DNA of 64,000 nucleotides from Eledone cirrhosa (lineage: Eukaryota). Positions 45,403-47,140 of this stretch are shown piece after piece. The DNA is taken from contig OZ024741.1 of NCBI GenBank assembly GCA_964016885.1, positions 328,414,001-328,478,000 on the forward strand, read 5' to 3'. Every line of letters starts with the position of its first letter. Positions within the stretch are counted from its first letter, which is position 1. Below the pieces are notes generated by a model. That model was not told where the DNA came from. It ran no database searches and was given only the letters and a program-made list of their open reading frames with translations. The position numbers and the translations under genes were made by a program.

Positions 45403-45766
45403 GTGTATGTATGTGGCATATGAATGTGTATGTGTATATGTGTGTATGTGTGTATATACACACACACACATATATATACTGTATATATATATATATATAT
45501 ATATATATATATATATATATATATATATTATATATTTAGAAACACACAGATACATGCGGACACACACATATACATGAATGCATCCACACCCAACCGTGAG
45601 TTAAGGGTGCCAACCTCACCGATGTTGCTCAATGAATGACTGGGACAGACCAATCCGGTTGAACCAGACTGAACCAGTATCAGAGTTAAAAATACATTAT
45701 GAAGAGAGAAGAAACATTTAGATATAATTAGTAATAAAATGTATCATACCTAAACTGCTCCTAGAT

Positions 45767-45856
45767 TCCTCGACTACGTAGTTTCGTGGCATAAACAAAA
45801 ACAATACATCATAAAGATATAGAGTCCTTGCGAGGTCTGCCGACTTATCAAGAGGA
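45767..45856 (-). ncRNA. Type I hammerhead, U3-A8 core (family C)
   Basis: Reverse complement of the 46634-46723 motif, with core and stems identical. Confidence 0.8.
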
Positions 45857-46633
45857 TACCTCATTTTACTAGCCTCAAGAACGCGTCTACACGACGTGAG
45901 AAAGAATCCCAAAAGGCGGAGGGGGAGATAGTCACGCGATAAAATGGTCGAGAAACAGAGCTAAGCCTCTTATAACCCCGAAGAAAATACCACGGAGGCG
46001 GAGGGGGTATTCATATCGAAGCCGTAGAAGAGGTGGTGAAGGAGGCGAGAAGTATGAGCAATGGCTGCTTTCCAGCAGTCGCCACACTTCAAAGATTGCT
46101 CGACCAGAGGGAGTTATAAACAATATATTTAGAAACACACAGATACATGCGGACACACACATATACATGAATGCATCCACACCCAACCGTGTCTTCATAA
46201 TGTATTTTTAACTCTGATACTGGTTCAGTCTGATTCAACCGGATTGGTCTGTCCCAGTCATTCATTGAGCAACATCGGTGAGGTTGGCACCCTTAACTCA
46301 CGGTTGGGTGTGGATGCATTCATGTATATGTGTGTGTCCGCATGTATCTGTGTGTTTCTAAATATATTGTTAATAACTCCCTCTGGTCGAGCAATCTTTG
46401 AAGTGTGGTGACTGCTGGAAAGCAGCCATTGCTCATACTTCTCTCCCCCTTCACCACCTCTTCTACGGCTTCGATATAAATACCCCCTCCGCCTCCGTGG
46501 TATTTTCTTCGGGGCTATAAGAGGCTTAGCTCTGTTTCTCGACCATTTTATCGCGTGACTATCTCCCCCTCCGCCTTTTGGGATTCTTTCTCACGTCGTG
46601 TAGACGCGTTCTTGAGGCTAGTAAAATGAGGTA

Positions 46634-46723
46634 TCCTCTTGATAAGTCGGCAGACCTCGCAAGGACTTTATATTTTTATGATGTATTGTTTTTGTTTATG
46701 CCACGAAACTACGTAGTCGAGGA
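46634..46723 (+). ncRNA. Type I hammerhead, U3-A8 core (family C)
   Basis: tcctc-TTGATAA-gt c ggca...tgcc ac-GAAA-ctacgtag-TC-gagga; predicted cleavage after 46718. Confidence 0.8.
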
Positions 46724-47140
46724 ATCTAGGAGCATGTAGGTATGATACATTTTATTACTAATTATATCTAAATGTTTCTTCTCTCTTCATAATGTGTATA
46801 TATATATATATATATATATATATATATATATATATACATATATGTATATATATATATATATATATATATATATATATATATATATATATATATATATATA
46901 TATATATATATGTATGTCTATGTATATATATATGTGCGTATATTATTCCAATTCCACCCCGTCCGTACATTCAATCTATTTTATTTCTCATTCTTTCTTC
47001 CGATGAACGACTTACGTCCGAAATCTTAATACATTCTTCCTGCTATTTTAATCGTTAACCTAATATATTCCTTCCATATACTGCACCGATTGTGCTGATA
47101 TTTCTGTTGACCTTGTAATAAACAACATAAGGCAATTATT

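Follow-up and report, generated by a model that had tools for sequence, protein, structure and literature searches.

A two-arm non-coding element occupies positions 45530-46795 of the window, the whole 64,000-nucleotide stretch of DNA analysed here (Table 1). Its arms lie head to head (5'-to-5' in the ribozyme sense), and both 3' ends run into (TA)n. The right arm is the reverse complement of the left, entered at 164 nt within the unit; the arms are 98% alike, differing by 10 substitutions and one 1-nt indel. Unit positions (+n) are numbered from the first base 3' of the predicted hammerhead cut. Both arms contain a unit that is closed on itself, and no ORF lies inside it or at either 3' site. 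The longest ATG frame of the closed unit is 78 aa, and a Pfam search matched none of the three unit frames tested. On these ORF-length and Pfam results, the unit shares with animal retrozymes the absence of coding, LTR, PBS and PPT sequences. The target is (TA)n, and a TSD is not readable at either flank.

The preliminary description of this DNA had read the left copy as a 593-bp unit with a 69-bp redundancy and the right copy as the opposite strand, with another start point and a 12-bp redundancy. Both readings are confirmed: the 69-nt ends are identical and the right arm has a period of 592. The absence of a meaningful ORF and the (TA)n setting on both sides likewise hold.

Table 1. Features of the 593-nt element, its neighbouring reverse transcriptase (RT) fragment and the other hammerhead families of the window
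Feature	Position	Strand	Description
Left arm	45530..46191	-	593-nt unit + 69 nt = 1.12 units; from +174 round the unit, via the cut site, to +242, then (TA)n
Terminal redundancy of left arm	46123..46191	-	69 nt, identical to 45530-45598; pseudo-LTR-like partial copy
Right arm	46192..46795	+	592-nt unit + 12 nt = 1.02 units; starts at +66, goes once round to +77, then (TA)n
Terminal redundancy of right arm	46192-46203 = 46784-46795	+	12 nt
Head-to-head junction of arms	46191..46192	.	blunt; without microhomology, added bases or palindrome
162-nt "tail" between recurrent 3' ends +80 and +242	45530..45692	-	holds two hairpins, of which the second ends 8 nt short of +242
(TA)n target, left flank	45482..45529	.	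sequence
(TA)n target, right flank	46796..46911	.	sequence
Type I hammerhead, right arm	46634..46723	+	U3-A8 core 46639-46645, helix II arm 46646-46704, GAAA 46705-46708, helix III 46709-46716, predicted cut 46718/46719
Type I hammerhead, left arm	45767..45856	-	core starts 45851, predicted cut 45772/45771
Predicted locking hairpin (about -14 to +82)	45690..45785	-	predicted to pair helix III, cut site and 3' strand of stem I with +66..+82
Penelope-like RT fragment	~43860..45410	-	decayed (stops, frameshifts), 5'-truncated; separate insertion, not part of the unit
Family B	6067-6585 and 17932-18634	core at 6379, +	~320-nt non-coding unit, U3-A8 type I hammerhead; partial tandem + inverted arm at both loci
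Family C	51522-52465 and 52784-54354	cores 51815-, 52097+, 53145-, 53620+, 54084+	~464-nt unit, C3-G8 minimal hammerhead; two adjoining head-to-head insertions
Family E	18627-19414		527-nt unit + 260-nt redundancy with (TA)n at its end; an insertion within family B

Hammerhead motif and predicted fold

Each arm contains a 5-bp stem I, a UUGAUAA core, a 59-nt helix II arm, GAAA, an 8-nt palindromic helix III and UC. The motif descriptor places a predicted cut in each arm, in agreement with the single U3-A8 hammerhead per copy described previously, and 867 nt separate the two cuts. It finds three sites in the window (two of them in this element), none in the reversed window and none in 20/20 shuffles. 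It had been relaxed after its initial version missed the motif; helix II is bulged after 2 bp, which is why the motif escaped the stricter form. An Rfam search gave no match at gathering scores, and the hammerhead call stands at the motif level. By the descriptor, the hammerhead is present in one polarity of the unit only. None of the 37 variable sites listed (from 40 of 86 variant rows) falls within the 31 positions of core, stem I and helix III, where about two would be expected, too weak a contrast to carry weight. The locus lacks two hammerheads in tandem and therefore cannot itself yield a monomer circle.

Folded as a closed unit, the RNA has a z score of -5.8 in the hammerhead sense and -0.5 in the antisense (40 shuffles), and is predicted to be about 61% paired and branched rather than rod-like. 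The base of the predicted locking hairpin coincides with the short 3' end seen in reads (+77 to +80). The predicted probability that stem I forms is about 0.95 for an RNA ending at +10, 0.03 at +40, and close to zero at +85 or in the circle. The long 3' end (+242) sits 8 nt past another hairpin predicted to be stable (z -3.6). Preservation of pairing by the read variants, among those listed, is borderline, with P of 0.05 for 40 variants, 0.10 for 30, 0.32 for 12 majority alleles and 0.28 for a fourth set. An intron-like 5' splice signal at +22 was dropped, as no convincing acceptor or ORF accompanies it.

Copies and their ends in public sequencing runs

Copies were read from four of 24 listed public sequencing runs (X1, X4, X7 and X22), with one unit (45599-46191) as reference and a cut-off of 85%. 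Run X1 gave 1670 contigs, covering 30/30 bins of the unit, and 3064 reads of X22 match it; X4 and X7 gave three records each, partly unrelated. The X1 contigs carry several fixed differences from the window's unit. Because they span the whole unit and carry these differences, the unit is high-copy in a related lineage. It is a multi-copy family.

The ends of these copies, as seen in 17 of 164 loose-end rows, recur at a few positions. Loose ends into (TA)n lie at 45692 (+80; 11 contigs of X1, 215 reads of X22), at 46123 (+242; 4 contigs of X1, 254 reads of X22) and at 46115 (+250; 10 contigs of X1, 1 of X7). The recurrent 3' ends +80 and +242 are the sites used by the two arms of this locus. 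The 5' end of the left arm is not fixed, because the unit runs on across it in 4/4 runs; no record in these runs is long enough to show two consecutive ribozymes. Other ends among the loose ends listed are scattered (+408, +355), and X22 contains opposite-strand joints at other positions (+499/+184 and +139/+519), each with one read start.

The preliminary description had proposed free circular permutation, which is not supported, as both 3' ends are recurrent, family-wide sites that enter (TA)n in other genomes. Fixed copy ends, which it had set against its own reading, are found on the 3' side, whereas the 5' ends vary. Because the 3' ends recur at +80 and +242, the apparent permutation corresponds to two preferred start sites, that is, a Penelope one-end tail, here of 162 nt. 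The two arms are copies of one RNA polarity, made from opposite DNA ends, and the strand switch suggested earlier is not needed.

A larger class of X22 loose ends enters mixed, non-TA sequence (639 reads at 45659, +113, and 371 at 45729, +43), and the Penelope model has no account of it. The large X22 read classes share only +43..+113 (45659-45729, around the short 3' end) and then continue into other sequence; they could represent a related family or an autonomous partner. Depth in X1 falls between +245 and +345, with a dip at 46039-46118, a fall that overlaps the densest fixed differences near the 85% cut-off and is not interpretable. X22 is a RAD-seq run, whose depth is tied to restriction sites and is not interpretable either. 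Two of the 10 arm substitutions, one of them at a CpG, recur among the 37 variable sites listed, too weak a result for a test of separate template variants. A metagenome scan with a 19-mer gave two matches, both of just 19-20 bases in GC-rich contigs, as chance would produce, and a search of viral contigs with the unit gave none.

Penelope-like neighbours and other hammerhead families

The Penelope-like element (PLE) fragment reported beside the pair is real. It is similar to other RT stretches of the window and to P0001 (E 6e-23), which matches the ORF at 62 kb and shows an RT, a cysteine linker and a GIY-YIG-like end. Pfam gives this 62-kb type just a weak GIY-YIG match (E 0.057), and a motif reading after the account in PMC8557442 suggests that it is Neptune-like. 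Protein searches with the fragment itself returned nothing at E 0.001, nothing in PDB and a blank Pfam result, and its identity therefore rests on its likeness to the 62-kb ORF and P0001. Its similarity is lost right after the linker (43717-43860), with no GIY-YIG in the three minus frames down to 43240. Its 3' end carries no copy of the unit, and the fragment does not resume beyond the insertion. It most plausibly represents an older insertion into a (TA)n target of the same type. Compared with five PLE-coding stretches, the unit shows no homology beyond a microsatellite-like patch, and no autonomous partner was found within the window.

Four further Penelope-like RT fragments, all minus, lie at 8631-10758, ~14300-15200, 58945-59634 and 61859-64000. 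The one at 62 kb retains the cysteine linker and the GIY-YIG-like end, and fragments of this sort are candidates for the mobilising enzyme family. The window also holds a non-LTR retrotransposon at 29636-38322 (minus), which by its motifs we take to be L1/Tx1-like. It consists of two tandem GC-rich copies, 98% identical, with RT ORFs at 30959-32848 and 36805-38313 and endonuclease-like and gag-like frames upstream of them.

The window contains three other families, hammerhead or hammerhead-like, that are built in the same way as the 593-nt element. The arms of family B measure 1.47, 0.15, 1.36 (cut by family E) and 0.76 units. The 3' ends in family C fall at +246/249 in one arm and at +307/308 in its partner, in both pairs; these positions are approximate because C contains a microsatellite. 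Its first pair has arms of 0.98 and 0.96 units; the second has an 85-nt palindromic overlap at the junction and one arm of 2.19 units. Family E carries a hammerhead-like three-way motif with a 6-bp stem I and altered core boxes, possibly a ribozyme variant, and its helix II resembles that of the 593-nt unit. The two arms end at different places in all four pairs with readable 3' ends (the 593-nt element, B at 6 kb and C twice). Altogether, 11 arms were measured in the window, at 0.15, 0.76, 0.96, 0.98, 1.02, 1.12, 1.33, 1.36 (the arm cut by E), 1.47, 1.49 and 2.19 units; seven exceed one unit and four lie within 0.95-1.13. Since the four families share this build, the 593-nt element is one case of a class common in this genome.

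Two further features were observed. A C3-G8 minimal hammerhead with a 6-bp helix II lies at ~11470-11520 (minus), 5' of the PLE-coding stretch 8631-10758, with no second copy in the window. A short repeat family, in which motif scans find no hammerhead, has inverted pieces within (TA)n at 6971-7230, 28230-28777 and 51122-51460.

Mobilisation, template and relation to known elements

The element combines a closed 593-nt non-coding unit, one hammerhead motif per unit, high copy number, two recurrent (TA)n 3' ends, variable 5' ends and a head-to-head join. Very probably it is a retroelement of the kind known as animal (non-LTR) retrozymes, not autonomous but moved in trans by a Penelope-like RT/GIY-YIG protein. 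The preliminary description had likewise proposed an animal retrozyme borrowing PLE machinery, and the closed, ORF-free unit with arms just above one unit supports it. The 593-nt unit is a new family, although neither the kind of element nor the idea of a circle is new. The insertion signature of Penelope-like elements, a partial tandem (pLTR) with an inverted copy adjoining its 5' end, is present at 45530-46795, and their (TA)n target bias is matched by the flanks here and by read ends elsewhere. The same build in the three other families, and the Neptune-like coding PLEs with GIY-YIG in the same window, also support Penelope mobilisation. Against it stand the failure to find an autonomous partner in the window, the length of the tail (162 nt, compared with the published 30-40) and the X22 loose-end classes at +113 and +43, which are left over.

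We propose that a Penelope-like protein would cut both strands of the (TA)n tract, and that each DNA 3' end would prime reverse transcription internally on the hammerhead-sense RNA, with +80 as the start for one end and +242 for its counterpart. Each cDNA would cross the intact cut site and run slightly beyond one unit, and the two cDNA ends would then be joined bluntly. Since the overlap of the arms is complete, two molecules probably served as template. The template would be either a ligated monomer circle, on which the RT would halt shortly after running into its own product, or a linear tandem transcript left uncleaved. The hairpin predicted to form once +60..+82 is made would lock the ribozyme and keep the template whole, and it may mark the short start site.

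On a covalently closed monomer circle of 593 nt, produced by hammerhead cleavage and ligation, the RT would enter at two set sites and stall about one turn later. We place such a template just short of an even chance. The starts lie 162 nt apart, yet the arms end 12 and 69 nt beyond where each began; the cut site is not an end point of either arm, and the first family C pair is likewise near one turn. The circle is predicted to be strongly self-paired, with its ribozyme blocked, and circRNAs are reported from animal retrozymes (PMC7229834). However, seven of the 11 arms in the window fall outside 0.95-1.13 units, entry is not free but confined by fixed 3' ends, and the 5' ends of the family B arms (+19 and +37) lie close to the cut site, as expected from a linear cleaved RNA. 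Low fold energy does not prove a circle, because families B and C are predicted to fold well on both strands (family E folds weakly). According to PMC4209133, PLE-type hammerheads with a palindromic helix III cleave poorly and need dimers, a dimeric cleavage also reviewed in PMC6765202. Moreover, the substrate in the one in vitro PLE system, as presented in PMC11167929, is uncleaved RNA.

A linear template comes close to an even prospect in our estimate. It would be transcribed from a source copy in partial tandem or dimeric form (pLTR-body-pLTR) and stay uncleaved, and arms longer than one unit would mirror that source, as in coding PLEs. The fixed internal starts and the family B 5' ends are consistent with it, and the ribozyme is predicted to be locked in the full RNA. 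The partial tandem is described as the usual, transcribed form of PLEs (PMC8557442, PMC6765202), and hammerhead mutants left insertion in vitro unchanged in the account of PMC11167929. Nevertheless, a linear template gives no reason for the arms here and in the first family C pair to stop near one turn from their own starts. A linear uncleaved tandem RNA would give the same anatomy as a circle. A more specific scheme is possible but doubtful: hammerhead circles would be copied by a pair of PLE enzymes, one per broken (TA)n strand. Each enzyme would have a fixed entry point of its own, marked by a hairpin, and would stall roughly one turn later, and the ribozyme-locking hairpin would also serve as the start mark.

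The arms might instead be leftover pseudo-LTRs of a coding PLE, either the neighbouring RT fragment or one whose ORF is lost, and not independently mobile. We regard this as improbable. The pair does lie just 5' of the RT fragment in pLTR orientation, and U3-A8 cores are known from PLE pLTRs (PMC4209133). However, the self-closed unit leads into no ORF at either 3' site, its recurrent ends enter (TA)n rather than an ORF, and the RT fragment has neither a second copy of the unit at its 3' end nor homology to it. The fragment is also decayed, whereas the arms are 98% alike. The fall in X1 depth and the mixed +113 ends could mark the departure of a coding relative, but the depth dip coincides with the fixed differences noted above. 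An autonomous PLE was rejected, as the RT/GIY-YIG ORF between pLTRs is absent and the unit is self-closed, with no homology to PLE-coding stretches.

It is very improbable that the pair arose by DNA-level fold-back of a satellite unit or as an assembly or long-read chimera. Inverted repeats within microsatellites are error-prone in assembly (PMC8557442), yet 11 positions distinguish the arms, no palindrome is centred on the junction, and the outer ends on both sides coincide with ends seen repeatedly in other genomes. Self-priming fold-back, as described in PMC3846280, was rejected for this junction, which has no palindrome. An endogenised viroid-like or delta-like replicating RNA circle is also highly unlikely. 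Replicons of these kinds carry ribozymes in both polarities and have a rod-like fold; here the two polarities do lie side by side and the 593-nt unit is about 61% paired, but the hammerhead is in one polarity, the fold is branched with an unstructured antisense, the ends are of PLE type, genomic copy number is high and viral contigs gave no match.

The animal retrozymes in PMC7229834 (Cervera and de la Pena 2020) are 150-450 bp long and yield circRNAs in coral, mussel and axolotl, and PLEs are named there as their likely mobilisers. A recent survey (bioRxiv 10.64898/2026.07.22.740005; Li, Clavereau and Pollet 2026) reports families of 51-972 bp, links retrozymes to pLTRs and defines an "active" copy by two consecutive hammerhead units. 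The present unit resembles the animal non-LTR retrozymes of both sources in being non-coding, with one type I hammerhead, GC below 50%, high copy number, a self-paired fold and proposed PLE dependence. Its 593 nt lie inside the 51-972 bp range, and the earlier remark that it is longer than animal retrozymes fails, although it does exceed the 150-450 bp of PMC7229834. It differs from the retrozymes of both sources in its U3-A8 core with a 59-nt helix II arm. Unlike a head-to-tail array, it has two arms of about one unit head to head and lacks the two consecutive hammerheads of an "active" copy. Plant LTR retrozymes, with a type III hammerhead in their LTRs and a 4-bp TSD according to the same survey, are ruled out by the type I topology.

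The marks of PLE insertion given in PMC8557442 and PMC3846280 are a partial tandem, an inverted 5' copy, a 30-40-bp tail on one end and a (TA)n bias, and these sources also describe mobilisation in trans between pLTRs. In PMC11167929 the PLE protein cuts and extends both strands, and two internal start sites define the tail. The 593-nt element resembles the EN+ insertions of these three papers (Neptune, Poseidon/Penelope, Naiad) in its pseudo-LTR partial tandem, inverted 5' copy, one-end tail and (TA)n. Its hammerhead with palindromic helix III likewise lies upstream of the start sites, the short end being at +80 here and at roughly +85 to +92 in PAc, by subtraction from published coordinates. 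In contrast, it has no RT/GIY-YIG ORF, its tail is longer, its inverted arm is a full unit and its junction lacks a palindrome.

The ribozyme itself resembles the PLE-associated hammerheads of PMC4209133, where U3-A8 cores occur with PLEs and opposite-strand pairs lie 100-700 bp apart. U3-A8 covariation, a short helix I, a palindromic helix III and opposite-strand pairing at a few hundred bases are shared, whereas the helix II arm is much longer and bulged, helix III has 8 nt and the cuts, 867 nt apart, slightly exceed that spacing. The non-autonomous Chlamys elements, e.g., MRC1, are also ORF-free PLE derivatives, with pLTRs and head-to-tail insertions (PMC8557442). As described there, however, they are without canonical hammerheads and resemble an autonomous partner at the 3' end, and none was found for the 593-nt unit within the window.

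The partial tandem, the inverted 5' copy, the (TA)n target, the U3-A8 core, the opposite-strand pairs and the step from circle to more-than-unit copies are all already published. In the open literature searched, no account came up of an ORF-free hammerhead unit that combines a one-arm tail with an inverted partner one full unit long; such an account may stand in subscription papers, in Repbase/Dfam entries or in supplements (e.g., the model figure of PMC7229834).

PLE mobilisation of animal retrozymes has so far been argued from co-occurrence, shared ribozymes and pLTR phylogeny (PMC7229834, bioRxiv 10.64898/2026.07.22.740005). The 593-nt element is an ORF-free hammerhead unit that bears the PLE integration marks themselves, namely the one-arm tail, the inverted partner and (TA)n. 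Circles were proposed as templates for more-than-unit reverse transcription by Cervera and de la Pena (2014; PMC4209133), and whether the template is circular or linear has been a standing question of the PLE cycle since then. For the 593-nt unit a circular template is plausible and testable, if slightly short of probable. The shortness of the unit allows complete insertions to be measured, and the position of each arm's 5' end relative to its own 3' start, taken genome-wide, can therefore separate circular from linear templates. If the two-entry circle model is true, the element would be a genomic footprint showing that PLE pseudo-LTRs, tails and inverted copies all derive from circular templates, and the four families of the window would form a natural series for testing it.
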